From an uncultured Victivallales bacterium (GTDB lineage Bacteria; Verrucomicrobiota; Lentisphaeria; Oligosphaerales; CAZSBQ01), in assembly GCA_964604795.1 (NCBI GenBank), contig CAZSBQ010000048.1, positions 1-20,039 of the forward strand: 20,039 nucleotides of DNA, read 5' to 3'. The translations under genes and the position numbers were made by a program. This document shows positions 56 to 20,039 of this stretch, in pieces. Each line of letters begins with the position of its first letter. The first letter of the stretch is position 1. Below the pieces are notes generated by a model that had not been told where the DNA came from, did not search any database, and was given only the letters and a program-made list of their open reading frames with translations.

Positions 56-203
56 GTCTTTATTTGTTCCCGTTGAACGACTTGCGACTTCGCTAGGATG
101 GCTCTTTCTTTTCGCATTTTTTGCCTATAGTTGATGGTTGTGGTTTTGTTGTGTCTTTGTTGTGTTATATTTGCAGCAGTTCGAGACAACAAGGAGGCCA
201 GTA

Positions 204-1436: not shown

Positions 1437-1664
1437 TGGACAAGGAGCAAGCAGCCGCGTACTGGGCGATCCTGCCATCCGATAGTGATGAAGCAGCAAG
1501 CCCAGAACCACAGAGTGTGAAGACCACGTAGTCGGCTGCTGATTTTTGCCTCCCCATGAATGCCCGATCGACGCCGGCGCTGGCAGTGGACCCCCCGAAC
1601 CGGTGATTGGATTTTCCCTGTTTCTCGCTATAGTCTTGCCGAAAAGGGACTCTTTTTGCATCCC

Positions 1665-1693
1665 TTGACAGCACGCTGGTCGGTCTGTATTCT
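1665..1693 (+). promoter_or_regulatory. candidate sigma70-type promoter (TTGACA-N17-TATTCT) upstream of the cargo ORF
   Basis: TTGACA at 1665-1670, 17-nt spacer, TATTCT at 1688-1693. It faces the 1855 ORF, ~160 nt upstream of the GGAG(1843-1846)-ATG(1855). Confidence 0.4.
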
Positions 1694-1854
1694 TGCAACA
1701 GGAAACGGTCTGCTGTAAGGGTATTCCGCTCCAAGTCTGAAAAACAGTCTCAGGAACCCCTCCGCATATTAGTGGTCGCGCACAATTTTAAGGACAGTCA
1801 GTCCAAAGACAGAACGCGGGCGGTCGTGAGCTGGTTGCCGGCGGAGCATAGGCA

Positions 1855-3618: not shown

Positions 3619-3685
3619 GCCTTGCTGAGGCCCGTTCAGCAGGCAGTCGGCGGCCGCGCGCAGTGCAGCAGAATCCGGTTCCGGT

Positions 3686-3970
3686 CACAGTGTCACTGTC
3701 ATAGGGGTCTGTGTATGCTCAAACCCCTGATTTTTTGATAAAATCCCTGCTTTTTAGAGGTGAGAGGGGGTGGGTGTGACACTGTGACAGTATGGGTATA
3801 TATATATGTATATTCTATATATTTGAGGCTATATAGTCGTAAAAACAGTGTCACAGAAACCTCGTGACAGTGAGTGACACTGCACCTCTTTTTCAACAAT
3901 AGTGTCACGCAGTGTCACGGCGGACTCAAACAGCGAATCAGCCTCAAAACAAGAACAGTGTCATAGGGGC
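3686..3970. repeat. iteron-like array of CAGTGTCAC / GTGACAG motifs (about 9 copies, both orientations) flanking an AT-rich core at 3796-3835
   Basis: Copies include CACAGTGTCACTGTCATAGGGG (3686-3707), GTGACACTGTGACAG (3777-3791), AACAGTGTCACAG (3844-3856), GTGACAGTGAGTGACACTG (3865-3883), AGTGTCACGCAGTGTCACGG (3901-3920) and CAGTGTCATAGGGGC (3956-3970). The AT-rich tract is TATATATATGTATATTCTATATATTTGAGGCTATATAG. Confidence 0.6.
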
Positions 3971-4735
3971 GAATCCTGACTGCGCGACGGCATTTTGCCC
4001 TCCTGCTGGCGGAGCACAAGCAAAATCTCATGGCTGATCCCGAAGACCTGCCTTAGCTCGTTTCGGCCCTGATGCCGAATTCGGCATCAACTGCATAGCA
4101 CGGATTGGAAACCCTACCTCAAAAAAAATCGCGGAAAAATGATCCCCGACCACAGATCGCGAGCGAAGCGAGTGAGCTGTGGGACCGATAGGTCAAGGGG
4201 ATTCATTTTTTCGAATCCGGCCTAAACTCAAGCCGAATTTTGGATGCATTAGGGCGTATGGGCTGATCTTCAGGTATTTCGATCTTGTGTCAAATCATAT
4301 ATAGCCCTCTCCACTGCAGGGCCTGCAGTTGCTATGCTGCTCTTTGGCGAAGTGTGATGAGCAGCGCCTGGAGATGCCAGAAATAGGCTTTTTCAAACTG
4401 TGTGTAGTAGCGCAGCAATGAAGCACAGCGGGCCTTCTTATGCCTTCGCTCTCCCGTTTTCAGAGGTCAGAAAGGGTCTCGTCTGTACTGGTCTGCACAA
4501 GGGAACTGAAACCCAACCTCAGATCGATCCCCAGCACCGCAATCTCATCGACCCCGGAGTCTGTCCTGCAAATGCTCTCCGCCGCCTTTGTCAGGAGTCC
4601 ACAGAGCTTATCAAAGGGCAGGTGGGTGTTGCTCTCTGGATGTCGCCAGTAGTTCTTACTTCTCCCCTGATACACCAGAAGAAAAACGCCGCATCGGGAG
4701 CGGTTATCGCGCATGTATTGGCCGCGCAGCTGATT

Positions 4736-5595
4736 TTAAGCCGTTCGATGAGTTGACATGTTGACAATTTGTGAGCTATTTTTAATTCGATGAGCACAGG
4801 TGCGTCCACGCGCGCGGAATGGAGACGAATGTCGGGACGCTTTCCGTCGGCATAACTCTTCCTCCTGGGCCACGCTGTAGATGCTGCAACTGCGCTGCCT
4901 CAGCCAGTAGGCGAAATCATTGCGCAGTTGGACTTCTCGTTTGATGGCCTGCAATATGGATGCCCGGCTGTCCTCTGCTTCCTCGAGTTCGTGCTTCAAG
5001 TCGAGGAGTCGGCCGACGGTCAGATCGTAGAGTTCGGCGTGATTTCCGGGCTGCTTCACCCCCTTGTCGGCGAACTCGCGAACGGCGGCGAAAATGCCGC
5101 ATCGGTCAAGCGCTCCGTGAAGCTCCCGTCCAAGTCTCTTTATTGTCATCTCGAAGCGTTTGGGACCGACAAGGCGAGCCTCGTCAACCGAGTCGAGGAA
5201 GAAGAATGCTCGCGCCGAACCCCATTTTCGCCATTCCTCGAACTCCTCATGCGTTCCGGCCTCCTCGAACGCACTCTCGAAGCAGTCGCCGACAAACTCC
5301 AGGCGCACAAAGAAGGCTGCCTCACCCGAGGCCTTAAGTTTACAGGCGCAGTGCTTGAGTTCAGATGTCTTCCCCGACCCCGCTTCGCCCAGAATGACGA
5401 CACGGGGCAGTACCAGAAGATCGCCCCATCCCCTGGAGTCCAGTACGCCATGATGCCGAGAGTGTCGTAGTCATCGGATTGGTGCGGGTCTGGCGACAGC
5501 GGGATGAACTGCCGGTTCAAATGCAGGAAGTCAGTAGACATGGGGTAGCGATACGCTCTCGGTTTTTCCGGGCAGAAAGAGCCTTGCCAGTTCAA
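4736..5595 (-). pseudogene. P-loop NTPase (STAND/AAA-like), disrupted: N-terminal piece in one frame (5437..5541/5595), Walker A/B piece in another (4736..5470), followed by an in-frame TAA
   Basis: The minus frame that is open from 5470 encodes VVILGEAGSGKTSEL (Walker A) and FFFLDSVDEA (Walker B), but has no ATG/GTG/TTG before the GTG at 5308. The upstream ORF (ATG 5541, MSTDFLHLNRQF...AYWTPGDG) runs into it and is out of frame at the C/G-run 5425-5436. After the TAA at 4736-4738, the same frame reopens at 4714..4460. Confidence 0.55.
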
Positions 5596-5770
5596 TGCCT
5601 ACAATATCGCACCGACTGCAACACGCAATCCATTGTTCCCCTGCAGTTTCTCGTCCATTCAGAGAAACGCTTTCTGACGAAGCATTCACAAATCTGACGG
5701 TGAAGCAGGCAGGACACACGCTTTTCTGACGGTATAGCGTCAGTTTTATACGTCTGTATGTCAATGGGTT

Positions 5771-5800
5771 ATGACTTTTTAGTGGTTCATTTGGTATATA
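5771..5800 (+). promoter_or_regulatory. candidate promoter for the alpA-like gene (ATGACT-N18-TATATA)
   Basis: -35-like ATGACT at 5771-5776 and -10 TATATA at 5795-5800, in the divergent gap between the NTPase relic and the HTH gene. Weak -35. Confidence 0.25.
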
Positions 5801-5879
5801 TTACCTGCATTCGACCCGGACTGCTGGGGATGGTCCGCAGTGGCCGACGGGTCGCCAAACAGACAAGGAGAAGATGAGA

Positions 5880-6134
5880 ATGAGTGACAATTCAAGCAGG
5901 ACGCGGGAAAGAGGCGCAGGAGGCGATTTGATGACGCCCGAGCAAGCGGCGAAATTTCTAGGGGTAAAAAAAAGCTCGCTTGCTGCGGATCGATGTCGGC
6001 GAAGCTGGGACATTCCCTATTTTAAATTAGGTAGTGCCGTCAAGTACGCCCGCCGAGATTTGGAGAATTATTTGCAGAAATGTCGAGTTGACCACGGCAA
6101 GGAGGAGTGCGGAATTCCAATAAGAGCAGAGTAG
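5880..6134 (+). CDS. alpA: AlpA/Xis-family helix-turn-helix DNA-binding protein (excisionase/regulator, HTH_17-like)
   Basis: LMTPEQAAKFLGVKKSSL...IPYFKLGSAVKYARRDLENYL is the typical AlpA/Xis/MerR-like HTH followed by the wing. Alternative starts: ATG 5874 (poor spacing to AAGGAG) and ATG 5929 (GGAGG 8 nt upstream; gives 68 aa). Confidence 0.65.
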   Translation: MSDNSSRTRERGAGGDLMTPEQAAKFLGVKKSSLAADRCRRSWDIPYFKLGSAVKYARRDLENYLQKCRVDHGKEECGIPIRAE

Positions 6135-6155
6135 AAGGACCCACACAAGGGGGGG

Positions 6156-6180
6156 GGCACCGGACTTCAAGCCCGGTGCC
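6156..6180 (+). terminator. stem-loop GGCACCGG-N9-CCGGTGCC after the alpA stop, preceded by a G9 homopolymer (6149-6157); weak intrinsic terminator or RNA structure
   Basis: Perfect 8-bp inverted repeat at 6156-6163 and 6173-6180. It is followed by CCTCCACCCTTTAG, which is not a strong U-tract. Confidence 0.3.
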
Positions 6181-6206
6181 GCCTCCACCCTTTAGAACGA
6201 ACATTA

Positions 6207-7199
6207 ATGGAGAAGAATAATAACTTGAAGTCGAACACCGAAAAATTTGATCTGATGATGACGCCGATGATGCGGCTGCGGGCGAAATTGAAAGAGTTGC
6301 CCCCGCCGGGCTACGGCCAGGGATGCCATCCGGGGCTCCTGGGGTGCGCGAACCTGGCCAGACGCGCAGGACTGGACCGGACTTCCGCATTTTGCAGGCT
6401 CAAGAATGCGATCAAGCCCGGCCCACGCGAGGTTCCGGATACGGAGATAAAAGATGCCATCAATCTCGCATACGACGGCAATCAAGAGAGTAGACCTCGC
6501 CCGGCAGCGGTCCGGAGAGCCGAAGAGTCGGGAGTTCCGAGCTTCGATAGCGATGCCGAGCGAAATCGCATAATTCAGGCAGGTGCCGGATGGGATGAAG
6601 CCACTTGGATGGCTGCCTCCCCGACACCAATTCCCGAAGCCCCCGCCGAGCAGACGCAACTGGTGCTTCGCGAGCTGTTCAGCGTCAACGAGTTCGTTTT
6701 CGTGGGCGAGCGGTGGGGGACGTCGGACAGCGTCTTGAGAGTCGAACAGTGGGCTGGCATCCTGGCTGAATTTGCAGGAACCCTGAACCCGCCACACGTG
6801 ATCCCGAATCCGCTGACGGGAGACTGGGCTGCGAAGAGCTCAGGAGGTGGCAGTAAACGCTGCGACGAAGCCGTGGCCAAGTATCGAATTGCGGTCGCCG
6901 AATTCGACGGTCTCTCCCGAGAGGAGCAGTTGGCTTTTTGGGCGGGATTTGGTCGCCCGCTTGTGGCGCTGGTTGACTCCGGCGGAAAATCCGTTCACGC
7001 CTGGCTAAAAGTAGACTGCGCCGATGCCCAAGATTGGGGCGAGCAGGTGGGCAAAAAGCTTTACGGGGACCGATTAATCCCCCTTGGCGTCGATCCCGCA
7101 TGCCGGAATCCAAGCAGACTCTCCCGCCTACCGGGCATCACGCGAGACAATGGAAATATTCAGAACTTACTTTATCTGAAGAGTATGGAGAATCGATAA
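6207..7199 (+). CDS. primase-polymerase (archaeo-eukaryotic primase, PrimPol-like) replication protein
   Basis: AEP-like motifs: IAVAEFDG (acidic motif I), VDSGGKSVHAWLKV (motif II, sGxGxH), RLPGITRDNGN (motif III). Immediately followed by the DUF3987-like gene with overlapping TAAATG. Confidence 0.5.
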   Translation: MEKNNNLKSNTEKFDLMMTPMMRLRAKLKELPPPGYGQGCHPGLLGCANLARRAGLDRTSAFCRLKNAIKPGPREVPDTEIKDAINLAYDGNQESRPRPAAVRRAEESGVPSFDSDAERNRIIQAGAGWDEATWMAASPTPIPEAPAEQTQLVLRELFSVNEFVFVGERWGTSDSVLRVEQWAGILAEFAGTLNPPHVIPNPLTGDWAAKSSGGGSKRCDEAVAKYRIAVAEFDGLSREEQLAFWAGFGRPLVALVDSGGKSVHAWLKVDCADAQDWGEQVGKKLYGDRLIPLGVDPACRNPSRLSRLPGITRDNGNIQNLLYLKSMENR

Positions 7200-8495
7200 A
7201 TGCATAACCGAACATCTAGCCCAGATCCCGAGCGCGAATTGGAGCATATCATCGCAAATATGCCAGAGCGCAATCAGCCTATCCCAGATAGAATCCAAAG
7301 AATCATAGGCGACAGAGGGTTCTTACGGTCCTATCTTGACTTGCTCGGAGGAAGAAACGAAACTTCCTCGCTTTTTCACCTGGCCACCGCTCTAACCGTC
7401 CTCGGCGGCGGCCTGGCACGCAAAGTCTACGTCCGGCACGGCGAGCGTCGGGTTTACCCCAATTGTTTCACTTTAGTCGTAGGCAACAGCGGGATCTCGC
7501 GCAAATCCTCAGCGTTATCACCGGGGAAGCGGGTTTTTAGCAACTCCGGAACAGGTGATACAATGCCGGATAATTTCAGCGAAGAGGCGCTCGCTGAAAT
7601 TTTGAAGGAAGCTCCAGTCCTGGGAATCATCAGCGAGTTCAAAACCCTTGTAATGAATGCCGGAAAAAACTATGCGGGCGGCCTAATCTCGAGGCTCACC
7701 GACCTGTTCGACATGCCCGCGGAACTTTCTTTCGCCTTCAAAAAAAATGCGAAAAGGAAAGGAGAGGGCTGCAAAGTCGTCGTCCCGGATCCCACTCTGA
7801 GCCTAATCGCGGCGACCACTGAAGATTATTTCGCAGTCGACGACGCGGACGTTGCCGGTGGATTCGTGGGACGTTTTCTCGTGTTCGCGCACCAAGAGGA
7901 GACGCCCGTCATCCCGTGGCCGGCACCGATTCCGAAGGAAGCGTTTGTGCACCTGGGCGCAATGCTGCGCGAGCGTGCGGAAAACGGTTGCGGCGAGCTG
8001 GAACTGACCGCCGAGGCGAAAGATGCCTTCAGTGACATCTACCGGCGCTTCCGCAAAGAGGCCAGCGAGGCTCCCGATCGAAGTGCCGCGATGGACAGCT
8101 TCAGGTCCCGGGCTGGACTTTTCGTACTGAAGCTATCCCTAATTTTTGCAGTGAGCGAAAACCCGCACGCCAAGGTTATTGAAAAAACACACATTACGCG
8201 AGCAGAGCTGCTAGTCAAACAGTGCACTGAGGGACATGCCCGGTTGATCAGCCGCATATGCACCTCGAAATGGGAAAAAGACCGAAAAAAGGCTCAGGAT
8301 TTCATCGCCGCCCGCAGCGAAACCAGCATGCGAGACATTTATCGCCATCTCGGGGTTGATGTCCAAACCGCGGGTCGCATCGTCGACACGCTGGAGGCCA
8401 GCGGTTTGGTGCATTCTCGAATGGAGAAGGCCGCGAACGGCAAAGAAGTCGTTCGCATTGTTAATGGCCCCGATCCAGAAGAATCGGCAGCCTAA
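7200..8495 (+). CDS. DUF3987-like protein with degenerate P-loop (helicase-like partner of PrimPol in integrative-element replication modules)
   Basis: YPNCFTLVVGNSGISRKSSAL resembles the degenerate Walker-A region of DUF3987/primase-C-terminal proteins. The ATG at 7200 overlaps the PrimPol stop (TAA 7197-7199), indicating coupling, with GGAG 9 nt upstream. Confidence 0.4.
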   Translation: MHNRTSSPDPERELEHIIANMPERNQPIPDRIQRIIGDRGFLRSYLDLLGGRNETSSLFHLATALTVLGGGLARKVYVRHGERRVYPNCFTLVVGNSGISRKSSALSPGKRVFSNSGTGDTMPDNFSEEALAEILKEAPVLGIISEFKTLVMNAGKNYAGGLISRLTDLFDMPAELSFAFKKNAKRKGEGCKVVVPDPTLSLIAATTEDYFAVDDADVAGGFVGRFLVFAHQEETPVIPWPAPIPKEAFVHLGAMLRERAENGCGELELTAEAKDAFSDIYRRFRKEASEAPDRSAAMDSFRSRAGLFVLKLSLIFAVSENPHAKVIEKTHITRAELLVKQCTEGHARLISRICTSKWEKDRKKAQDFIAARSETSMRDIYRHLGVDVQTAGRIVDTLEASGLVHSRMEKAANGKEVVRIVNGPDPEESAA

Positions 8496-8505
8496 AATCA
8501 CACCC

Positions 8506-8533
8506 GGCGGGGAGGCCATCGTGCCTCTCCGCC
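8506..8533 (+). terminator. 11-bp stem hairpin GGCGGGGAGGC-CATCGT-GCCTCTCCGCC just after the 7200-8495 gene; possible terminator/RNA structure
   Basis: The inverted repeat has one G-U wobble. It is followed by TAAACGCGGAATTTCTATAAATTT, which is AT-rich but not a clean U-run. Confidence 0.3.
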
Positions 8534-8578
8534 TAAACGCGGAATTTCTATAAATTTATGAAAATACGAGGTTTACCT

Positions 8579-9088
8579 ATGTCGTCACGCGAAGATACCG
8601 TTCGCAAACATGTTTCATCCGCATTGGACGAGAGCAGCCGCGCTAACTTTGAAGCGGCGCTCAAAAGTCATAGCCTGACTTTTTACCAGAAGGGCCGGAG
8701 TCCCGCCGTCAATTTGAAAACCAACTCTGGGGGGCAACGCTTCAGGCTCCAGCGCCTGGGCCTGCTCGACAGATGGAACGCGGCGCTGGCCGCCTGGGGA
8801 GAAGATGCCAATTATCCCAGTCGGGGCACCGTGAGGACCAGGGGAAAAGGCGTGGACGAAATCGCCGCGCTCTGGCACGAATTCAGCAACAACAGCTCCA
8901 AGCTGTCCCCGAACGAGCGCTTGTCCGTGCGAGATTTCCTGGAAGAACTGTCTTACGATGATGTCTGCAAGGCGTTGGAAATTACAGCTTCGAGACTTTC
9001 AGGAAAACCAGACGAAGACCGATTTAGGTACTTCTGCGGAATTTGCTGGAATAAGATAAAGGAGCTCAAAAGCAGTAGGGCGGACTGA
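8579..9088 (+). CDS. hypothetical protein (approx 170 aa)
   Basis: ORF 8558..9088. The ATG at 8579 has GAGG 9 nt upstream, while 8558 has no RBS. No recognisable motif. Confidence 0.45.
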   Translation: MSSREDTVRKHVSSALDESSRANFEAALKSHSLTFYQKGRSPAVNLKTNSGGQRFRLQRLGLLDRWNAALAAWGEDANYPSRGTVRTRGKGVDEIAALWHEFSNNSSKLSPNERLSVRDFLEELSYDDVCKALEITASRLSGKPDEDRFRYFCGICWNKIKELKSSRAD

Positions 9089-9098
9089 CCTAAAGGGT

Positions 9099-9122
9099 GC
9101 GGGGAGTTCTCAAGCTCCCCGC
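9099..9122 (+). terminator. hairpin GCGGGGAG-N8-CTCCCCGC immediately after the 9088 stop
   Basis: 8-bp perfect stem, extendable with a bulge to GTGC...GCAC. There is no U-tract, so it is a weak terminator or a structural element. Confidence 0.3.
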
Positions 9123-9641: not shown

Positions 9642-11571
9642 CTATTCCAGGACTGACGGCGCCAGACAGACGCGGAAGCCCAGGCTGTTGCCCGTGTTCT
9701 CCGGGCTGCTCCTGTTGCGGTAGGCCGACCGCACGATTCCGGACGAACCGACCCAGCAGCCGCCGCGACTGACGCGGTCCGAGGCCGCCTTAGTGTTCAC
9801 CGGGTTCGTCCCGGGCGACCGCCCGTAGAAATCGTCATCGTACCAATCATAGCACCACTCCCAGACGTTGCCCGACATGTCGTGCAAGCCGAGTTCGTTG
9901 GCTTTCAATTGCCCGACTTCGTGCGTTTCTCCCCCGCTGTTGTCTCGGTACCACGCCACCTCATCCGCGTTGTTCGAGCCGGAATACGTGTACCCCCGGC
10001 TCCTGTTACCGCCGCGCGCGGCGTACTCCCACTCCGCCTCCGTCGGCAGACGGTACACGTACCCGTCCGGCAGACGTCCGGCACGGCGCTCCCGCCCCGC
10101 CAACGCCTTGCAGAATTTGTCCGCATTGTTCCAGGATACGCCTTCCGCCGGAAAGCGGGGATGAGTGATACGTCTGACCTCCCGTCCGATGCCCAGAAAA
10201 CCGGACTTCACAACGTCCTCGTCTTGAAAATGACTTGGATTTCTGCCCGTCAGCTTCTCGTACTCTCCCTGCGTCACCGGATACTTACCCATCCAGAAGG
10301 GATGCGTTAGCGTCACCTCGTGGACCGGCTTTTCGTCTTTGTATGCGTCGGCCTGATCGCTGCCCATCTGGAAGGTCCCCGGTTCCACTCGGACGAACTC
10401 CATGCCCAGCTCGTTGCCGGCGGTCGGGTCGTCTGCAGGTGAAGCGGCATCGGATGCTGTTGGTGTGTCGGCTCGAATCGGTTCAGGTCGGGCCGGTTGC
10501 GGCTTATGCTGCACGGATGATGCTTCCGATGCAGTCGATGGTTCGCCCGGCAAACGTTCGCGCATGGCTGCGGCATCCGCAAAACGGCCGGAGGCATCCT
10601 CCTCCAACGCCGTAAGGATAAGCTCATCCCAGGCGAGATCGAGGCTTTTTACGTAGTACGATGGTGGCCGGGGACCGACCTGCTTGCCGGTGAGCAGCCG
10701 ATACATCATCAGGCCGACGCTGTAGACATCGCTTGCGGGCGTGGCGTCCTCGCCGCGCTTTTGCTCCGGGGACATGTACTCAAAGGTTCCCAGCATGGAC
10801 TTTGTGCTGGCTCCCGCACCCTCGGGAAGCTCAGTCTGCATCCCGCCGATGCTCATCGACATCTTCACGGACAGCTCGGCCTGACTGCGCACCCACTCCT
10901 CGCCGATCATGCGGACCAGTCCAAAGTCGGCGATCTTGAAGGTGGCGTAGCCGTCGCCGTCGGTGCAAATCAGGATGTTGGCGGGTTTTAGATCGCGGTG
11001 AATCACGCCATGTTGGTGCGCGTGAGCCAGGCCGTCCAATACCTGAGCGAACACCGCAGCCGCCTCATCTGAATCGAGCCGCCCACCCTGCGCCTCGGCA
11101 TACTCCCCCAACGTCCTGACCTCTGCCCTCTGATCTCCGCCCTCTGCCCTCCGACCTCCGACTTCTGCCCTCCGATCTCCGGCATCCAGCTCGTGGGGAC
11201 ACTCGCCCTCCAGGTTCAAGGACAAAGCCACTCGCCAGTTCCATTCGCAGCCAGTACCGCCCGTCGGTCTCGCCGAAGTCATCGACCTGAACGATATTGG
11301 GATGCTCGATATTCGCCATGGCGCGCGCCTCGCGCCGGAACCGCTCGAGCGCATCCGCCCGGTTTGCGAAGTCCGCAGGTAAAAGCTTGAGAGCGTACCT
11401 TCGAAGCAGGGTCGTATGCTCAACCTCATACACTTCCCCCATCCCGCCGCGCCCCAGCAGCCGAACGACTCGATACTGCCCAAGCACGTTACCGGGCTTC
11501 AAAGACGAACCTCCCGGGTCTTTGCCCCCAGGCGGCATCGTCTCATCGAAGTTGATGGTGTTGTCGTTCAT
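9642..11571 (-). CDS. Ser/Thr protein kinase fused to a C-terminal FGE-sulfatase (formylglycine-generating-enzyme-like) domain; frameshifted between kinase N-lobe and C-lobe
   Basis: N-lobe (ORF 11065..11637): [18 protein letters not shown] (Gly loop), YALKLL (beta3 Lys). C-lobe (ORF 9642..11483): [20 protein letters not shown]-sulfatase-like region: [16 protein letters not shown]...[16 protein letters not shown]...NVWEWC...RGGCW. The two frames swap between 11211 and 11238. ATG at 11571 (MNDNTINF); the GTG 11637 extension lies inside the upstream repeat. Confidence 0.8.
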
Positions 11572-11574
11572 GTC

Positions 11575-12195
11575 GTTCGCTTGTTTCTTGGGGCGCTGCC
11601 CCAAACCCCGCCAGGGGAAACGTGGTTCCCCCTGCACCCCCCCAAGGTAGTCAGGACCGGGGGCAATGGGCCGGGAACTTGAACGGTTTTGATAAACCGC
11701 TCAACTTCCCGACCCGGTTCCGCATTTTTTTTTTGGGCCTTCCAATCGTTATACCCTAAAATCGTCATACCTTCTCCGGCTCTTGTCTTCTCTCCGCGCC
11801 TCTGCGCCTCCGCGCGAGAATCATGCCTTTCCAATCGTCATACCATCTCTCTGCCTTTTGTGCTGGGACTGGGGGACCATGGGTGTGTGGGGTTGTGAGT
11901 ATGTGGGTGTCACTGGCAACTGGCAACTCGCGTTTCGCGCCTCACGTTTTATGAACAGGCAGGGATGCCTATTCTACTTTGCCCTTTGACTTTGCCCTAC
12001 CAATCGTCATACCTCTCTCTTTGCCTTTGCCCCATGATTCTGCCGCCAATGATTCTGCCAAATCTGCTCTTGCCTTACTTGCGTAAAACGTGTGTGGGTG
12101 GGTCTGTGGGTGTCAGGTTTCGTTTCACGCATCACGTTTTATGAACAGGCAGGGATGCCTATTCTACTTTGCCCTTGCCTTCCGCTTGTCATACT
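11575..12195 (+). repeat. modular intergenic repeat, copy A
   Basis: hp1 TTGGGGCGCTGCCCCAA 11588-11604; hp2 11611-11634; 41-bp palindrome CCGGGAACTTGAACGGTTTTGATAAACCGCTCAACTTCCCG 11671-11711, then T10 11725-11734; AATCGTyATACC at 11744, 11760, 11833, 12002; CGCG-rich unit 11790-11845; GT-rich 11881-11910; ACTGGCAACTGGCAACT 11912-11928; hairpin AACAGGCAGGGATGCCTATT 11954-11973 and again 12134-12153; ATGATTCTGCC x2 12034-12059. Confidence 0.8.
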
Positions 12196-13895
12196 TACCG
12201 CACGATGGTTTGGTTGTCGCTGGAGCGCTTGGCGGCTTCGGTGGCGGGTTCGACGGTGGTTTTTAGGTTGCGTTCCTGGCGGTCGCCGGTGTCCTTGTAG
12301 AGCGAGCGCATTTCTTCGAGCAGCTCGCGGTACTTGTCTTCTTCGCCCTGCTTCATGCGTGCGAGCGCTTCGGCGGCTGCGGGACTGTCGGCGGCCGCCG
12401 CGGCGAGGATTTGCTCGGGGGTTTTGCCGTCCTGCGATTTGAGTCGCATGGCGTCGAGGATGGATTTGCGCGCGTCGGGGTCCTGGATGTCGGCGAGCAT
12501 CTCCAGTTCGGACATGCCGGAGCGGCGCTTGGCATCCAATTCGGCCATCTCGGCCTTGTGCTCCTCCTTCTGCTTGCGCAGGCCCATGGCCCATTCGGTC
12601 TCCTCGCGTTCGCGCTGGTCGGCCCACTCCTTCTCCTTTTTCTCCTGCTCGAACTGGATATCGCGGACCTGGGTTGCGGTTTCCGTATCCTTTACCTGCT
12701 TGTCGCGCTCGTAGCCGTCGCGCTTGACGGATACGCCGAGGTCGTGCTCGAGTTTTTCGGATTCGACCTGGAAGGTATGGCGCAGGTCGTCGAGTTCGTC
12801 CCGCTTCTCCCAGGCGCGGTGCAGCTCGGTGCGTTCGCGGTCGCGCTTGTCCTCGGCGATGCCGTACTCGTGGGCGATGGCGGCCTGGTAGTCGGCCAGT
12901 TCCTGCTCCGAGTGGAACTGGTCCATTTGGTCCTTGGAAAGCAGCGAGCGCATCTGCTGATCGTACTCGATCTCGCGCCGCTTCTGCTCGACTTGGCCCA
13001 TCTTCTCGGCGAGGTCTTCGTACTCTTCGCCGGTGAATTCGGCGGAGGAGACGCGGACCAGCTCGATGCCCTGACGGACAAGCGCCTCGCGCAGGTAGCG
13101 GTCGAGGTCGTCCTGCAGGCGCAGGCGCCGCTCGGGATCTCGGACGAGGTCTTCGACGGTGCTCTTTACGCACATGGCGTCCACGGCGTGCCGGATATCC
13201 GATTCGAAGGGCGAGGTCATGTCTTGGTAGGATATCTGCTCGGCGTCCTTGAAGCGGTTTTCGAGGAAGGCGATGGCGCTCTTCTTGTCGTTGCCGAAGC
13301 GAACGATGACCTCGCCGTAGAATTCGATGGGCAGGCCCTCGGAGGTGCGCAGGCTCTCCAGGCGTACTGGGAGGATGACGTCGCCGGCGTCGACGAGCAC
13401 GACGGAGCGCGGCGGCGGGTTGCCGAAGCGGTTGATGGCGCGCGCCAGGCTGTCGGGGTTGTGCCGTCCCGCTTCCAGGATGCCGCGGAACTGTCCGCCG
13501 TCCATGAGCAAGGCGACGGTGCCGGCTTGGACGAGCAGGTCGTTTTTGAGCAGGCGCTTGATGTCGCCGATCTCAAAGCGCTGGGCGAAGACGCCGGGCT
13601 GCTTGCTCCAGACGCCGCCCGCAATGTCCGCGCGGCTCTCGGGATGCAGCGGCTGGTTGCAGTGGGGGCAGAAGTGGGAGTCGTTGCCGATCCATTTGCG
13701 GCAGGAGGGGCATTTCCACCAGCCGCCGGGGGCGGGACGGCCGCATTTGTTGCAGAATCGGGCAGCCTTGCGGACCTTGTTGTCGCAGACGGGCCAGTCA
13801 GGGTCCTGCCGCGCCTGCTCCAACGCTTTGCCGCTCAACGCGCGACCGCTGTTCGGATCGATCAAAGCCTGACATGTGTCACTGAAAATACCCAT
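12195..13895 (-). CDS. zinc-ribbon + SPFH/band-7 domain protein with long charged coiled-coil C-terminal region
   Basis: N-terminal CxxC...CxxC...CxxC (CNKCG...CPSCR...CPHCN). Central region VVLVDAGDVILPVRLESLRTSEGLPIEFYGEVIVRF...DIRHAVDAMCVKSTVEDLVRD...LREALVRQGIELVRV fits the SPFH fold pattern. E/K/R-rich C-terminus. ATG 13895 (MGIFSD) with GAGGTG RBS; the TTG 13964 extension (MGQRPKKQ...) lies in the repeat. Confidence 0.5.
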   Translation of the reverse strand: MGIFSDTCQALIDPNSGRALSGKALEQARQDPDWPVCDNKVRKAARFCNKCGRPAPGGWWKCPSCRKWIGNDSHFCPHCNQPLHPESRADIAGGVWSKQPGVFAQRFEIGDIKRLLKNDLLVQAGTVALLMDGGQFRGILEAGRHNPDSLARAINRFGNPPPRSVVLVDAGDVILPVRLESLRTSEGLPIEFYGEVIVRFGNDKKSAIAFLENRFKDAEQISYQDMTSPFESDIRHAVDAMCVKSTVEDLVRDPERRLRLQDDLDRYLREALVRQGIELVRVSSAEFTGEEYEDLAEKMGQVEQKRREIEYDQQMRSLLSKDQMDQFHSEQELADYQAAIAHEYGIAEDKRDRERTELHRAWEKRDELDDLRHTFQVESEKLEHDLGVSVKRDGYERDKQVKDTETATQVRDIQFEQEKKEKEWADQREREETEWAMGLRKQKEEHKAEMAELDAKRRSGMSELEMLADIQDPDARKSILDAMRLKSQDGKTPEQILAAAAADSPAAAEALARMKQGEEDKYRELLEEMRSLYKDTGDRQERNLKTTVEPATEAAKRSSDNQTIVR

Positions 13896-13924
13896 CGCTG
13901 CACCTCGTCTTTCGCTTTGCTTGG

Positions 13925-14430
13925 TGGTTTGTTTGCTTGCTTGTTTCTTGGGGCGCTGCCCCAACCCCCGCCAGGGGAAATGATTTCCCCTGGACCCCTC
14001 GGGCTGTTTTACCGCGAATCTCGTAAATCCGCGCGGCAGGGGACAGAGGGCATGGGTCGGGAACGTGAGCGGTTTTTGGCAAACCGTTCAAGTTCCCGCC
14101 CCGGCTCCAGTTTTTGATTTTCCTGTCGCTACTTCCGGACCATGGGGGGTGTGGGTTTGTGTGTGTGGGTGTGTGGGTGTGTGGGGTTGTGTTACTGATT
14201 ACTGGTCACTGGTCACTCCCGCTTTACGCTTGACGAACAGGCAGGGATGCCTGTTTTACGTTATCCTCTGCCTTTGCCCCATGATTTTGCTGTCAATGAT
14301 TTTGCCAACCTGCCCTTGCCCTTCTAATCGTCATACCCCAATAATCGTCATACCTTCTCTCTGCCTTTGCCTTCTCCCTCACGCCTCACGCCTCACGCCT
14401 CACTCATCACTCATCACCTGTCTTGCAGAG
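13925..14430 (+). repeat. modular intergenic repeat, copy B
   Basis: hp1 13948-13964; hp2 CCAGGGGAAATGATTTCCCCTGG 13971-13993 (11-bp perfect stem); palindrome CGGGAACGTGAGCGGTTTTTGGCAAACCGTTCAAGTTCCCG 14058-14098 plus T-runs 14111-14122; GT microsatellite 14147-14192; ACTGATTACTGGTCACTGGTCACT 14193-14216; terminator-like hairpin 14236-14258; ATGATTTTGC x2 14281-14304; AATCGTCATACC x2 14326-14354; CCTCACG x4 then CACTCAT x2 14369-14418. Confidence 0.8.
14236..14258 (+). terminator. terminator-like hairpin AACAGGCA-GGGA-TGCCTGTT + TTTT (module of the repeat family; perfect copy)
   Basis: 8-bp perfect stem, GGGA loop, U4 tract, in the + orientation only (antisense to all neighbouring genes). 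Equivalent copies lie at 20016-20037 (perfect) and 11954-11973, 12134-12153, 18209-18228 (one stem mismatch, TGCCTATT). Confidence 0.35.
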
Positions 14431-14502
14431 CAGTATACTCGATATTCCCGGGATTTTCAACTCCTCTATTTATCTCTGTTTACGGGAGCGGTGCTGCGTT
14501 GG

Positions 14503-15363
14503 TCAGGTTTCTCGCTTGGCCAGGGTTTCGCAGGCGCAGTAGTTGTAGGTACCCAGCACGGCGACGCTGACGGCCAGGGCTGCGGGCAGCCACGGCCCGG
14601 TGACGGTGTAGAGTCCGAGCAGGGCCAGCGCGGCCATTCCGATGGCCGTGTACCCCAGCAGCAGGAGAGCCCCGGCTGCATTGGTGCGTTGGCGACGCGC
14701 ATGGAAACTCAGGGGAGCGGTGATCCAGGGCAGAGCGGCAATCCCGGCGATGCCCAGCAGCCAGACCAGAATGCGACTGCCGCCGCCGTGGTTCTCGTCC
14801 TCCCGCGCCGCGGCGACGGTGGAACTGCCGGTCACGGCTTCGTTGAGCAGCCGCCGCTTCTGCCCCGGCGCGAAGGCGCGCAGTTGAACGGTGGCAAGCG
14901 CGTCGGCTTCGGTGGATGTGATGTCCCGCACGCTGCCCGCAATCACCACATCCAGGTCGACGCGACGCCCGGCGTTGAGTATCTGCTCCAGGGTGGTTGC
15001 GCCTTCGAGCTGGCTGGTGACGTCCTTCAGGAAGCGCTTGATCACCGACCGGTCGTCCACCTCGAAGCGGGGATGCCCGGCGACGGCCCGGCGCAGAGTC
15101 GTCGTCACCTCGTCGGTGGGATCGGAGAGCAGATGAGCCACGCCCACGCGCAGGGGCGTTTCATCCTCGGCAGGCGCCAGTTTGGCCGCCATGCGCTCGA
15201 CAAACTCCCGGCACAGCTGCTCGACCGCATGCCGCTCCTGCTCGGTCAGCTCCGGCGGACGCGGACGGCTGAAGACAAACACCTGCCAGCCGAGAAACGC
15301 CAGAACGACCAGGGCCAGTCCCTTCAGAGAAACCATAAACCACAAAAACCGCATTACGCTCAT
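14503..15363 (-). CDS. hypothetical membrane protein (N-terminal TM helix, 3-4 C-terminal TM helices)
   Basis: ATG 15363. Hydrophobic N-terminus FLWFMVSLKGLALVVLAFLGWQVFVF and C-terminus ILVWLLGIAGIAALPWI...ALLLLGYTAIGMAALALLGLYTV...ALAVSVAVLGTY. No family recognised. Confidence 0.5.
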   Translation of the reverse strand: MSVMRFLWFMVSLKGLALVVLAFLGWQVFVFSRPRPPELTEQERHAVEQLCREFVERMAAKLAPAEDETPLRVGVAHLLSDPTDEVTTTLRRAVAGHPRFEVDDRSVIKRFLKDVTSQLEGATTLEQILNAGRRVDLDVVIAGSVRDITSTEADALATVQLRAFAPGQKRRLLNEAVTGSSTVAAAREDENHGGGSRILVWLLGIAGIAALPWITAPLSFHARRQRTNAAGALLLLGYTAIGMAALALLGLYTVTGPWLPAALAVSVAVLGTYNYCACETLAKRET

Positions 15364-15384: not shown

Positions 15385-15445
15385 TACGACGAGTAGGAGG
15401 TATGACGATTGATTGGTATGACGATTAGAGGGGGTGACAATTGTT
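15385..15445 (-). repeat. minimal copy of the AATCGTCATACC direct-repeat module (two units 16-17 bp apart), here inverted relative to the other copies
   Basis: GGTATGACGATT at 15399-15410 and 15415-15426, then GGTGACAATTG 15433-15443 (compare CCAATTGTCAACC at 18292). It lies 35-60 nt upstream of the 15363 ATG on the gene-sense strand. Confidence 0.6.
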
Positions 15446-16284: not shown

Positions 16285-16536
16285 TGCCTTCCAATCGTCA
16301 CATCCTACTCTCGGCCTTTTGGACCGTGGGACTGGGGGACTGATGGACCGGGGTGCCCACCCTCCCTGCCTGCCTTGTCATTCTGCCAAACCGCATTTGC
16401 CCTAGCAATCGTCACACCCAAAAAATCGTCATACCCGCTCTCTGCCCTTGCCCTTGCCCTTGCCTTTGCCTTCCAATCGTCAACCCCATAATCGTCAACC
16501 CAACGCCTTTCTGCCCTTGCCCTTTGATTGTCATCC
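16285..16536 (+). repeat. modular intergenic repeat, copy E (AATCGTCAyACC-rich variant)
   Basis: CAATCGTCACATCC 16291; GGGACTGGGGGAC 16328-16340 (as in copies A and C); AATCGTCACACC 16405 and AATCGTCATACC 16422; (TGCCCTTGCC)n 16442-16470; AATCGTCAACC x2 16473-16499; TTGATTGTCATCCC 16523-16536. Confidence 0.7.
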
Positions 16537-17667
16537 CTACTCCTCCTCCGTTTTTTTGCGTCTGTCCGGCTCGGGCTCATCGAAGTCGTCCAGATCGCTT
16601 GTCGCCGGGGCGATCGTTGCCGGCGCGCGCTCGGCCGTATCCTCCTCCGCCTCCGGTTCCTCATCAAACCCGGCAAGCAGCTCGTCCAGGTCCTCTTCCC
16701 CCTCCTCCTCCCGCCGGCGTCCGGCGCGGTCCAGGTCCCTCATCGCATCCATCACCGCATCGGCTTCGCCCGCCTTTTCATCCAGGTCCTCCACCAGACT
16801 GTCCACCTGGTCCTCATCGATTCCGCGCAGATCATAGGCGAGCATTTCCAGAAAGCGTCCGCGCACCCGCGAGACCACGCGCTCATTTTCCAGCAGCACG
16901 CCCAGCTCGCGCTCCGCATCCTTGTATCCCGACAGCAGATTCTTCAGCTCCATGTCGAGCACCCGCCGACGCGCGCTGCCCGCCTTTTCCCGCTCCTTCT
17001 TCTTGGCGACAATATCCTTGTGCAGCGACTCAAGCCGCCCCGACACGCCCTCGCGACGCTCCCTGTTCTGCGATATCTGGCCGTCGAAGGTTGCCAGCAT
17101 CGTCTCCGGAGACGTATCCTTGCGCAGCTTGCCGAGCAGGCCCGCCGCCTGTCCGCCCGCCTTGCGGAGCATATCCAGCGTGTTCCTCATCGCGCTCTTC
17201 GCCACCGGTTTCGGGGCGTTCCTGGCCAGTTCGCGGTCTTTCTCGGTGCTCATTGCCGGTTCCTCCGACTCCGTCGCGGCCGCTGCGGACTCCGCAGACC
17301 CCGACGAAGGTTCGCTGTTGGATTGTTCCTCGTTTCGATTCCACATCCGCTTCCACCAGGGACGCGTTGAATTCTCACTCTCCGTCCCCGATGCCGCCGC
17401 GGACTCCGCAGTCTGCCCGGAGTGCTCCGGGGTCGCTTCCCGGTTCGACTCGGTCTCGGACGCCGACTGACGCGAAACCGCCGCCTGCCCGCCACCGCTC
17501 TCGTCCGGTTTCCACCCGTGCGCGGGACAACGCCGGTTGCCGCGGCGCCAATGCAGGTCGCAGAATGCCGCGCCGCAGCCCTCGGCATCGCACGTTCCCG
17601 CCACAGCATACCGATTCGGCAACGCCCGCCCGCAAATGCAGCACTGTGTCTTGCTCTCGGTCATCAT
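16537..17667 (-). CDS. hypothetical Cys/His-rich (zinc-finger-like) protein with low-complexity S/E-rich middle and highly acidic C-terminus
   Basis: Double ATG at 17662-17667 with GGGTGA upstream. N-terminus CCICG...C..C...C..H....C..H. C-terminus EEEGEEDLDELLAGFDEEPEAEED. No family recognised. Confidence 0.5.
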   Translation of the reverse strand: MMTESKTQCCICGRALPNRYAVAGTCDAEGCGAAFCDLHWRRGNRRCPAHGWKPDESGGGQAAVSRQSASETESNREATPEHSGQTAESAAASGTESENSTRPWWKRMWNRNEEQSNSEPSSGSAESAAAATESEEPAMSTEKDRELARNAPKPVAKSAMRNTLDMLRKAGGQAAGLLGKLRKDTSPETMLATFDGQISQNRERREGVSGRLESLHKDIVAKKKEREKAGSARRRVLDMELKNLLSGYKDAERELGVLLENERVVSRVRGRFLEMLAYDLRGIDEDQVDSLVEDLDEKAGEADAVMDAMRDLDRAGRRREEEGEEDLDELLAGFDEEPEAEEDTAERAPATIAPATSDLDDFDEPEPDRRKKTEEE

Positions 17668-17789
17668 TCACCCAAGGTCATGGTTGCGTCCGTCAATGCT
17701 CGAGTCGTCCGTGCCGGCGTAAACGTATCGCGGGTTATCTCTTTTTACAAACGCACAAACACAAACACAAACGAAAACCCGAATCGAAC

Positions 17790-18403
17790 CGAGTCGAGTC
17801 TTGGGGCGCTGCCCCAAACCCCGCCAGGGGAAATGATTTCCCCTGGACCCCTCAGGCAGTTTTACCGCGAATCTGGCAAATCCACGCGAATGGGGGCAAG
17901 GCACGGACAGGGGCACGGGCAAGGGCAGGGGCCGGGAACTTGAGCGGTTTTTGGCAAACCGATCAAGTTCCCGACCCAGTTCCGCATTTTGGTTCTCCAA
18001 TCGTTATACCCTAAAATCGTCATACCTTCTCCTGCTCTTGTCTTCTCTCCGCGCCTCTGCGCCTCCGCGCGAGAATCATGCCTTTCCAATCGTCATACCA
18101 TCTCTCTGCCTTTTGTGCTGGGACTGGGGGACCGTGGGTGTGTGGGGTTGTGAGTATGTGGGTGTCACTGGTAACTGGTAACTCGCGTTTCGCGCCTCAC
18201 GTTTTATGAACAGGCAGGGATGCCTATTCTACTCTGCCTTTGCCTTATGATTCTGCCATCGATGATTCTGTCAAAACTGCCTTTGCCTTTCCAATTGTCA
18301 ACCCCATAATCGTCAACCCAATGCCTTTTCCTTCTCTCCGCGCCTCTGCGTCTCTGCGCGAGAATCATGCCTTTCCAATCGTCCACCGGGGGCGTTGCCC
18401 CGG
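17790..18403 (+). repeat. modular intergenic repeat, copy C (near-identical to copy A over ~330 bp)
   Basis: CAAACA tract 17745-17775; hp1 17801-17817; hp2 CCAGGGGAAATGATTTCCCCTGG 17824-17846; palindrome 17935-17975; AATCGTTATACC / AATCGTCATACC 18003-18030 and 18088; CGCG-rich unit 18037-18095 and again 18333-18390; GT-rich 18125-18160; ACTGGTAACTGGTAACT; hairpin 18209-18228; ATGATTCTG x2 18246-18275; AATTGTCAACC / AATCGTCAACC 18292-18320; hairpin CCGGGGC-GTT-GCCCCGG 18387-18403. Confidence 0.8.
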
Positions 18404-18494
18404 CCTGGTATGCGGCGCGCCGTTGGCGCAGATGCGGTGGACGCGTTTGTTCCAGCGGATCGTTGTTTGCGGCTCTGCGCAAAGAACGATCCAT

Positions 18495-18565
18495 GGGGGG
18501 TGCAGGGGGAACCACGTTTCCCCTGCCGAGGGTCTGGGGCGAGCAGCCCCTGGGTCTTGGCGTTC
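18495..18565 (-). repeat. inverted partial copy of the hp2/hp1 module of the repeat family
   Basis: GGGGGGTGCAGGGGGAACCACGTTTCCCCTG is the reverse complement of copy A 11611-11640. It is followed by GGGGCGAGCAGCCCCTGG, an hp1-like GGGGC...GCCCC hairpin. It abuts the 3' end of the AAA+/DUF4143 gene. Confidence 0.55.
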
Positions 18566-18601
18566 AAATGTCAACCCAACTCCCCGCAGGCGCCGAGGCT
18601 C

Positions 18602-19864
18602 TCAGCGCAGCAGCCAGTGGGCGGGGACATGCCAGATTCGGTCGTTGATCTTCTCGATAGTCCCGCCCGCGGTCACAAGCAGTCCGATACCGTCGGCATC
18701 CTGCTCGACGAACTTCTTCAGGTGCCGCGTATCGGCGGGATGGTACGTGTTCGACGCCTTGCACTCGCAGTACGCCGTAGTGTCGGGATTCGCCAGGGGG
18801 AAGACCGCGTCGACCTCCACCCCGGTCGAGGTGCGGATGAAGAAAAGGTCCTCGCGCAGGCTGGACAGATATAACTGCTTGCGAATATCGGTCAGCACCG
18901 TGTTTTCGAAAAGCTCCCCGGCATCCTGCCGGTAGTTGTTCAGCAGACAGCGCGCGAGCCCCGTGTCCGAGAAATACCACTTCGGGCTCTTCATCACCCG
19001 CTTGCCCAGGTTGCGGAAAAAGGGAGTCAGTCGCCACGCGATGAACAACTGCCGGTAGTAGTGGACGAAGCGACGCACCGTGTCCGCAGTCACCCCGCAG
19101 TCCCGGGCCAGCTCGCTCACATTCAGAAGCGAGCCCAGGCGAAGGGCAAACAGGGACTCGAAGCGCTCGAAAACATCCGCCGACTTCAGATTCACCAACT
19201 CGCGCAGGTCGGTTTCCAGGTACGTCTGCCGATAACTGTTCAGCCAGTTCCGACGGTCCTGGCCGTCGCGACGGGTGAGGAACTCCGGATAGCCGCCGTA
19301 CAGATTGAAATCCCGGAACCGGTCCAGCAGCTCCGCGGACTCCTGCACGGGGAGGTAGAACTCCGCAAGAATCCGCTCGGCCGCGCCGACCGATTCGGCC
19401 TCCAGCAGCGTGCTTAGCAGACCGGGGCCGTCGAGACCGCACAGCTCACGAAACGACAGCGGATCGAGCCGATAGAGCGCCACCCGCCCGGCCAGCGACT
19501 CCTTCACCTGCCGATGCAGCAGCAGGTGATTGGAGCCCAAAAGCAGAAACCGCCCCTTCACATTCGGGCGCTCGTCCACATCCAACTGGACCCGCTCCAC
19601 CAGCTCGGGCAGGCGCTGCACCTCGTCGAGAATGATCAACCGCTCCGCGTAGTGGGCGAACTCCCGTCGCGCGCCGTCCCCCTGCAATGCGGCGCGCACA
19701 CTGGGATCCTTGAGATTGTAGTACTGCACCGGCCGGTCGGTCTTCAGCAACTGGCGGACCAGCGTCGTCTTGCCCGTTTGACGCGCGCCCATGACCGCAA
19801 TCACCCGCTCGACATCAAGCGCGCGGGTAATATGCGGCGTCAATTGTCGCGCAAGAAAGTTCAT
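18602..19864 (-). CDS. AAA+ ATPase with C-terminal DUF4143 domain (AAA_14/DUF4143 family ATP-binding protein)
   Basis: ATG 19864 with GGTGAG RBS. Walker A VMGARQTGKTTLV; Walker B LIILDEVQ. The C-terminal half is typical of DUF4143 proteins (LRLGSLLNVSELARDCGV...YFSDTGL). Confidence 0.75.
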   Translation of the reverse strand: MNFLARQLTPHITRALDVERVIAVMGARQTGKTTLVRQLLKTDRPVQYYNLKDPSVRAALQGDGARREFAHYAERLIILDEVQRLPELVERVQLDVDERPNVKGRFLLLGSNHLLLHRQVKESLAGRVALYRLDPLSFRELCGLDGPGLLSTLLEAESVGAAERILAEFYLPVQESAELLDRFRDFNLYGGYPEFLTRRDGQDRRNWLNSYRQTYLETDLRELVNLKSADVFERFESLFALRLGSLLNVSELARDCGVTADTVRRFVHYYRQLFIAWRLTPFFRNLGKRVMKSPKWYFSDTGLARCLLNNYRQDAGELFENTVLTDIRKQLYLSSLREDLFFIRTSTGVEVDAVFPLANPDTTAYCECKASNTYHPADTRHLKKFVEQDADGIGLLVTAGGTIEKINDRIWHVPAHWLLR

Positions 19865-19974: not shown

Positions 19975-20039
19975 GGTCTTGTTCACGCCTCACGTTTCAC
20001 GCTTCAAGTTTTATGAACAGGCAGGGATGCCTGTTTTAC
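19975..20039 (+). repeat. partial copy of the repeat family (hairpin-terminator module) running off the window end
   Basis: CACGCCTCACGTTTCACGCTTCAAGTTTTATGAACAGGCAGGGATGCCTGTTTTAC. The perfect AACAGGCA/TGCCTGTT hairpin at 20016-20035 plus TTTT. It sits upstream (gene-sense) of the 19864 ATG. Confidence 0.7.

Follow-up and report, generated by a model that had tools for sequence, protein, structure and literature searches.

REP and BIME elements of enterobacteria are extragenic, hairpin-forming repeats that lie between co-oriented genes, combine short motifs in varying order and orientation, and break short-read assemblies (PMC3333891, PMC3184786). The BOX, RUP and SPRITE elements of Streptococcus pneumoniae, as well as the ERIC and Correia elements, are modular or long imperfect palindromes of ~60–150 nt; they are intergenic, co-transcribed with neighboring genes, lineage-specific, and patchily distributed among relatives (PMC3049150, PMC3184786). 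Here we analyzed positions 1–20,039, the full length, of contig CAZSBQ010000048.1 (assembly GCA_964604795.1) from an uncultured Victivallales bacterium (20,039 nt; "the window"), with a focus on a large imperfect palindrome that occurs three times between its genes. On the best reading, this palindrome belongs to a new family of a known kind, lineage-restricted hairpin-forming intergenic repeats, here from an uncultured bacterium of the Planctomycetes-Verrucomicrobia-Chlamydiae (PVC) group; to our knowledge, such repeat elements have hardly been described in this group. More specifically, we regard it as the hairpin core of an ~85-nt module in a lineage-specific mosaic intergenic repeat family, a reading in which confidence and doubt are about evenly balanced.

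As with REP, REPIN and BIME elements, the imperfect palindromes of the window lie outside genes and form mosaic clusters together with other motifs. In contrast to the 20–40-nt REP unit, however, the palindrome spans 41–60 nt, its arms are not REP units, it carries no GTAG-type 5′ tetranucleotide, and no RAYT gene was seen on the contig; another module of the same clusters, GTAG-AAT-AGGCATCCCTGCCT-GTTC, looks more REP-like than the palindrome. Sequence similarity to BOX, RUP, SPRITE, ERIC or Correia elements was nil, and terminal inverted repeats accompanied by a target-site duplication could not be delimited. MITEs have such repeats and duplications, with empty sites in relatives. In the present case, a compact spacer free of the element exists in a related organism (Y, see below) and inverted double hairpins bracket one intergenic block (between genes F and E), but neither a target-site duplication nor exact ends could be defined. 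Heptamer repeats known as STRR occur in heterocystous cyanobacteria. The blocks of the window also carry tandem heptamers (ACTGGTC, CCTCACG and CCCCAGT-like units), but STRR belong to another phylum, and the likeness concerns the modules surrounding the palindrome, not the palindrome itself.

Three copies of a long palindromic hairpin

A search of the window with the pattern CGGGAAC-N-TGA-N-CGGTTT, a loop of 4–5 nt, and AAACCG-N-TCAA-N-TTCCCG revealed exactly three matches, whereas 100 dinucleotide-preserving shuffles contained none and the chance expectation was 0 (Table 1). The original prediction, made from the sequence of this stretch, of three copies followed by T-runs was thereby borne out. 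Its position for copy 2 was exact; copy 3, given as 17935–17975, lies 2 nt away, and copy 1 measures 40 nt rather than 41. The T-runs read directly from the sequence were T10 at 11725–11734 (copy 1), T5-GA-T4 at 14111–14121 (copy 2) and T4 at 17987–17990 (copy 3), as predicted, and the centers differed between copies (loop TGAT vs. TTGGC). Alignment showed that the conserved unit is longer than the palindrome, comprising at least 85 nt with a G-rich flank, the 41-nt palindrome, a GTTCC flank and the T-run. The spacing between copies was irregular (2387 and 3875 nt), and a CRISPR array was rejected on this ground.

The 18-nt arms contain one or two non-Watson–Crick positions per copy, and pairing resumes outward past a 1-nt mismatch via GGG/CCC; on the + strand, G·U pairs extend it to 2–3 nt short of the T-run, leaving GCA-U10 in copy 1, AG-U5GAU4 in copy 2 and GCA-U4GGUUCU in copy 3. 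Because pairing continues outward from the arms, each copy can form a hairpin of ~26 pairs. Folding energies ranged from −33 to −39 kcal/mol on the + strand and from −35 to −43 kcal/mol on the − strand, and the z-scores for both lay between −3.3 and −6.3, indicating a stable GC-rich hairpin. The − strand gave the better fold in copies 1 and 3 but the + strand in copy 2, and thus no consistent strand preference was found. No U-run follows the hairpin on the − strand in any of the three copies; viewed in the direction of the genes, the downstream T-run of the palindrome is an upstream A-run.

A pair-by-pair count in the three-copy alignment revealed 20 invariant pairs among 26, five that were only broken, one that varied on one side, and no compensatory change; arm position 12 was non-Watson–Crick in all three copies (A·C, G·U and G·A). 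The compensatory changes in the arms that an RNA hairpin had been expected to show were therefore absent, but three copies give little power, which leaves the RNA-hairpin reading without support but not disproved. The heptamer CGGGAAC occurred seven times in the window against 4.3 expected, and five of the seven occurrences were within the palindromes. Outside the palindromes, only chance-level half-site matches were found in the window, also with looser searches, in disagreement with the expected enrichment of half-sites elsewhere.

Palindromes reside in collinear, chimeric intergenic blocks

The palindrome always lies inside intergenic blocks of 0.5–0.9 kb that align collinearly over ~500 nt; its distance from the stop codon of the preceding gene is ~400–600 nt. 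The blocks fill the spacers in front of genes A, B and E, which are unrelated and all encoded on the minus strand. Read on that strand, the order of modules is a tandem GGCAGAATCAT pair, a 9-bp hairpin GAATAGGCA-TCCC-TGCCTGTTC, and heptamer and CA-rich tandem repeats; these are followed by GGTATGACGATT motifs, often as pairs 16–18 nt apart, an A-run, the palindrome and a C-rich spacer, and finally by a double hairpin CCAGGGGAAA..TTTCCCCTGG with GGGGCAGCGCCCC, which reaches to 18 nt from the ATG of gene A.

Comparison of the blocks upstream of genes A, B and E revealed that they are chimeric relative to each other. In the distal 250 nt, the A and E blocks were 97% identical, compared with 58–69% for B vs. 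E and 54–67% for A vs. B, whereas in the proximal flank the E block resembled B (79%) and not A (47%; A vs. B, 50%). The palindrome core itself showed 88% (A vs. E), 95% (B vs. E) and 85% (A vs. B) identity, and the double hairpin 88%, 93% and 92%, respectively. Thus, the palindrome core (85–95% between copies) is no better conserved than the neighboring non-palindromic modules (88–97%), which argues that its conservation reflects duplication of the block and not selection on half-sites. Conserved arms around a variable center, the pattern noted in the original prediction, are not diagnostic, since adjacent non-palindromic sequence is equally or better conserved. No gene-specific conservation was observed.

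Since assembly of the contig ran through repeats, some of the blocks could in part be chimeric in their placement. Confirmation comes from independent Logan contigs, which contain gene B together with the modules on either side of it and, in a second organism, the palindrome; these contigs break at the repeat modules.

Table 1 Features of the window discussed in the text.
Feature	Position	Strand	Description
Palindrome copy 1	11672–11711		18-nt arms, 4-nt loop TGAT; 100 nt upstream of ATG of gene A (minus-strand gene)
Palindrome copy 2	14058–14098		18-nt arms, 5-nt loop TTGGC; 163 nt upstream of ATG of gene B (minus-strand gene)
Palindrome copy 3	17933–17973		266 nt upstream of ATG of gene E (minus-strand gene)
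85-nt module, copy 1	11660–11744	+	G-rich left flank, palindrome, GACCCGGTTCCGCA, T10; repeat family D6, alignment
85-nt module, copy 2	14047–14131	+	TTTTTGATTTT at 14111–14121; repeat family D6, alignment
85-nt module, copy 3	17922–18006	+	TTTT at 17987–17990; repeat family D6, alignment
Block between genes B and A	11572–12194	−	Collinear with the other two; distal 250 nt 97% identical to E block
Block between genes C and B	13896–14502	−	Collinear with the other two; ~130 nt of GGTATGACGATT modules missing
Block between genes F and E	17668–18601	−	Chimera, distally A-like and proximally B-like; switch at palindrome
Double hairpin upstream of gene A	11579–11642	−	CAGGGGGAAC..GTTTCCCCTG with GGGGCAGCGCCCC; ends 18 nt before ATG; families D10, I2
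Double hairpin upstream of gene B	13939–14003	−	Families D9, D10
Double hairpin upstream of gene E	17792–17850	−	
Inverted double hairpin just past stop of gene F	18495–18550	+	Family I2, 89% complementary
Gene A	9642–11571	−	Ser/Thr kinase with FGE-sulfatase domain; frame broken by 109-nt heptamer-repeat insert
Gene B	12195–13895	−	Zinc ribbon and SPFH/Band-7 protein
Gene C	14503–15363	−	No family match
Gene D	15449–~16273	−	GxxExxY / PD-(D/E)XK
Gene E	16537–17667	−	Cys-rich, coiled-coil protein; orthologues in two related organisms
Gene F	18602–19864	−	No Pfam or NCBIfam match

Patchy distribution among relatives

Two related organisms were found in Logan contigs. Organism X (run SRR17886269) encodes proteins 84% (gene B) and 72% (gene E) identical to those of the window, and organism Y (run SRR13694707) carries genes F and E (91% and 82% identical) adjacent to each other as in the window. 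The gene E contig of X has its start in the loop of a palindrome (AAAACCGCTCAAGTTCCCGACCCATGCCCTCTG) that precedes the ATG by 470 nt; this half palindrome is nearly identical to the window copies and is followed by four inverted GGTATGACGATT pairs in place of the double hairpin. Upstream of gene B of X, another hairpin module (GCGCCAACGGCGC, then CCGGGGCAACGCCCCGG) replaces the A-run, the palindrome and the first hairpin. In Y, the F–E spacer is only ~138 nt long, compared with 935 nt in the window, lacks the palindrome, and contains only one GGGGCGCTGCCCC hairpin and the element TTGCATTTGTAAAAAGAGA, which precedes gene E in conserved form in the window, X and Y. Presence of the palindrome is therefore patchy even among close relatives. 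Identities of gene E (window–Y 82%, window–X 72%, X–Y 73%) place X as the outgroup and Y as the sister of the window organism; since the window and X have the palindrome and Y lacks it, either a deletion or independent gains are required. More distant relatives (~60–65% identical) had none of the modules.

An element of the form TTGC(A/G)TTTGTAAAAAGAGA(T/C)AA lies 70–100 nt upstream of gene E, on the gene-proximal side of the repeat block (window 17738–17756, minus strand; L010 397–420; L011 1338–1362), and is probably the promoter or operator of gene E itself.

Relaxed palindrome patterns had no match in 596 Gb of GTDB species genomes, IMG/VR and JGI metagenomes, collections outside which the genomes of the source lineage lie, and a second, looser scan of the JGI metagenomes gave none either. 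No match was obtained for a whole intergenic block in plasmids and phages (blastn), or for the palindromes in Rfam, even at E ≤ 1. Six-frame peptides of the palindrome, compared with 5.8 billion predicted proteins for spurious open reading frames (ORFs) over other copies, scored nothing. A covariance model built from the three copies (R1), run unfiltered over all 13 loci fetched, recovered only those copies; a weak further match at 6124–6203 (E = 0.055) was rejected as an unrelated hairpin. A GTDB scan for the tandem GGTATGACGATT motif returned only two contigs of proteobacterial metagenome-assembled genomes (MAGs), which were set aside as members of a different repeat family. Literature searches on the palindrome motif and on repeats of Kiritimatiellae gave no result. 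As far as visible from these searches, the repeat family is thus restricted to this lineage.

Proposed interpretation as a mosaic intergenic repeat

On the mosaic-repeat reading, the blocks would have spread and been homogenized via recombination or insertion between intergenic regions, rather than being retained as a gene-specific operator, and the palindrome would act at the nucleic-acid level. In the sense (minus-strand) RNA, it could form a 22–25-bp stem in a leader or intercistronic region; RNA stems of this type block exonucleases or are cleaved by RNase III, and the palindrome may do likewise. In the opposite direction, the hairpin and U-run would stop antisense transcription.

Several observations weigh against this reading. 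No more than three full copies and a half copy are known, neither a target-site duplication nor clear element ends could be defined, and the 20-kb contig carries no transposase of the RAYT or IS200/IS605 TnpA type. All four copies point the same way with respect to the gene that follows, and none of the three full copies has lost its T-run; both features would also fit a selected function. In addition, the half copy of X is nearly identical although the proteins are only 72–84% identical, and this could reflect purifying selection instead of recent spread.

The finding does not open a long-standing question. It matters for annotation, as the modules extend to start codons and create spurious ORFs; for assembly, as contigs break at the modules; and as a case of intergenic expansion, given the difference in length between the F–E spacers of Y and the window.

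Alternative explanations

The main rival is a working Rho-independent terminator on the + strand, which would halt antisense transcription that leaves genes A, B and E at their 5′ ends or emerges from the block itself, and would thereby insulate the upstream spacer; we consider this unlikely, although its anatomy is plain to see. The combination of a long GC-rich hairpin and a downstream + strand U-run, noted in the original prediction, is indeed present, with the stem reaching via G·U pairs to 2–3 nt before the U-run, and the T-run is retained even where the flanks diverge immediately after it; the minus strand offers no such run. However, only T4–5 is common to all copies, T10 being an expansion in copy 1, and a terminator consensus scan of the region gave nine matches against 10.2 expected, i.e., no excess. 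Usual terminator hairpins are much shorter than ~26 pairs, and the present stem is two to three times the usual length; for two copies out of three the better fold is on the minus strand, and neither the substitution pattern nor compensatory changes, which are nil, favor the + strand. The proposal of a plus-strand terminator thus holds for its anatomy and fails in its context: all real genes nearby are on the minus strand, so that the terminator would point antisense, out of three gene 5′ ends. The sequence upstream of it on the + strand consists of the starts of three different genes, with no + strand gene, conserved + strand promoter or transcription unit to be ended there. If this anatomy were functional, it would be an example of repeats insulating genes from antisense transcription.

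Quite unlikely, in our view, is a leader hairpin within a propagated promoter and 5′-UTR (5′ untranslated region) cassette, in which genes A, B and E would obtain their promoter and leader from the block, with mRNA stability or translation under control of the hairpin. Putative mobile promoters are defined by at least 80% identity over 50–100 nt upstream of non-homologous genes (PMC3488235), a purely descriptive class into which the window falls, with homologous sequence before three non-homologous genes in one genome to within 18 nt of the gene A ATG (families D6, D9 and D10). All three blocks also contain a sigma-70-like TTGGCA/TTGACA-N16-AATCAT, ~300–350 nt upstream of the palindrome. This predicted promoter, however, is weak and a by-product of the tandem GGCAGAATCAT repeat. 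Gene E moreover retains its own conserved upstream element (TTGCATTTGTAAAAAGAGA) downstream of the palindrome, and Y has this element without the block; in X, other modules separate the palindrome from the ATG, 470 nt away, and GGTATGACGATT modules occur in both orientations.

Integron attC sites have the layout R″-spacer-L″...L′-spacer-R′ with R″ = RYYYAAC and R′ = GTTRRRY, are 55–141 nt long, and abut the 3′ ends of cassette genes. The palindrome, likewise imperfect and located between co-oriented unrelated genes, recalls this layout by its outer AAC...GTT triplets and its 7-5-6 organization (7 nt ending in AAC, 5, 6, loop, 6, 5, and 7 nt starting with GTT), and for this reason a hairpin recombination site, like attC or the site of another hairpin-recognizing recombinase, was considered as a means of exchanging intergenic modules. 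We find it very unlikely. The boxes CGGGAAC and GTTCCCG depart from the attC consensus and fit it only in the AAC and GTT triplets; the equal arm lengths leave no extrahelical bases, the spacers pair at four of five positions, the site is too short at 40–41 nt, and it lies hundreds of nt from the stop codon of the upstream gene rather than at gene 3′ ends. A tyrosine recombinase is present on the contig, but it adjoins the end of a tRNA within a distinct island ~10 kb from the palindromes, with only weak generic tyrosine-recombinase matches and none to integron-integrase models. The junction of the chimeric E block coincides with the palindrome, but a single junction within ~10% of the block length is weak evidence.

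By analogy, intergenic modules in this Kiritimatiellae-like lineage might also be shuffled by an undescribed system for which the palindrome serves as the crossover or recognition hairpin, an idea to which we likewise give very little credence. A recombinase with the folded AAC...GTT hairpin as its substrate, in the manner of integron integrases and attC, would swap promoter-proximal and distal blocks between genes. Such shuffling would lead to a chimeric E block with its junction at the palindrome and to near-identity of the element between species whose proteins are 72–84% identical.

Least probable of all is the proposed operator with GGGAAC-type half-sites for a dimeric DNA-binding protein co-regulating genes A, B and E: near-perfect dyad symmetry, a variable center and a position upstream of same-orientation genes in three of three copies would suit it, but the arms of 18 bp (22–26 bp with the extension) far exceed a helix-turn-helix half-site and a short dyad of ~14–22 bp in total, half-sites do not recur elsewhere in the window, the asymmetric flanks are equally conserved, neither the gene E orthologue of Y nor the gene B orthologue of X is preceded by the site, and no regulator gene lies nearby on the contig.

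Other candidates were rejected outright. An ECF sigma promoter was excluded because GGAAC lies 20–26 nt from any CGTT, in agreement with the non-canonical −35/−10 spacing already noted in the original prediction, and a sigma-70 or sigma-54 promoter inside the palindrome because of poor hexamers. The palindromes are on the 5′ and not the 3′ sides of genes, unlike target hairpins of diversity-generating retroelements, and a small ORF was dismissed as its frames differ between copies.

Other modules of the blocks

The double-hairpin module consists of GGGGC..GCCCC and CAGGGGAAA..TTTCCCCTG. As one of its copies is inverted, inverted repeats of ~50 nt (17792–17850 and 18495–18550) bracket ~0.75 kb of the F–E block, an arrangement that resembles terminal inverted repeats. 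Where the window has this arrangement, Y has its single GGGGCGCTGCCCC hairpin.

The motif GG(G)T(A)TGACGATT(GG) occurs at least 13 times, often as direct pairs 16–18 nt apart and in both orientations relative to genes. Sites in the window are 11744–11771, 11833–11844, 12002–12013, 14326–14354, 15399–15426 (+), 16407–16435, 16475–16501, 17999–18026, 18088–18099 and 18293–18319; in the two related organisms it is found in L002 (1830 and 2712), in L010, and at the ends of L011 and L012, where the contigs break. The same tandem 12-mer is also present in two proteobacterial MAG contigs (L008 2207–2234 and L009 5267–5296), fused there to a ATACCCGC-TTTC-GCGGGTAT hairpin.

The small hairpin GAATAGGCA-TCCC-TGCCTGTTC, the most REP-like module of the blocks, has five near-invariant copies on the minus strand (11957–11970, 12147–12160, 14239–14252, 18212–18225 and 20019–20032). 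GTAG precedes four of them, and in four copies a U·G pair on the minus strand corresponds to C·A on the + strand. Tracts of (TGTGGG)n / GGGTGTGT on the + strand (11880–11910, 14143–14192 and 18134–18165) contain at least four G-runs and could form G-quadruplexes on that strand; on either side are perfect heptamer repeats reminiscent of cyanobacterial STRR (ACTGGTC, ACTGGCA, CCTCACG and TCACTCA). The tandem GGCAGAATCAT pair lies on the minus strand at 12034–12061, 14281–14308 and 18247–18274. The sigma-70-like site that it yields, with 9–10 matches out of 12 and conserved in the three blocks, is the only promoter-like site common to all of them.

Gene context

Pfam and homologue evidence placed all supported genes between 9.6 and 19.9 kb on the minus strand. 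Gene B has more than 300 homologues, in MAGs labeled Kiritimatiellae, Lentisphaerae or 'Planctomycetota', and is also present on a Logan contig of run SRR15425353. Exact-protein look-ups for genes F and E returned no record.

In gene A, an insert of 109 nt rich in 7-nt repeats (11118–11226) separates the kinase motifs MELASG and RTLGEY; Tandem Repeats Finder reported CTGACCT ×8 at 11116–11181. As 109 = 3n + 1, the two halves of the gene are out of frame, and the loss of one heptamer would restore the frame, so that either a pseudogene or a slipped-strand on/off switch is possible. In a relative (~61% identical), two kinase-FGE-sulfatase genes of the gene A type lie beside genes for a reverse transcriptase (RVT_1) and an HRDC protein (L004 1006–6885), which is the arrangement of a diversity-generating retroelement with C-type-lectin-fold targets.

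At the other end of the window, positions 1–55 correspond to the 3′ end of a tRNA or tmRNA (...GGTTCGAATCCCTGCCTCTCCGCCA), and a tyrosine integrase, a 330-aa gene without family match and a DUF3987/MarR-like gene follow at 138–9100. The tRNA/tmRNA end, the integrase and the replication-type genes, including the DUF3987 protein, together look like an integrated island. This island carries none of the repeat modules; no attR repeat of the tRNA/tmRNA end was found in the window, and attR was accordingly rejected as an identity for the palindrome. An unrelated long hairpin, GGGGGGGGCACCGGACTTCAAGCCCGGTGCCGCCTCCACCC, is located at 6150–6192, just upstream of the gene starting at 6207.

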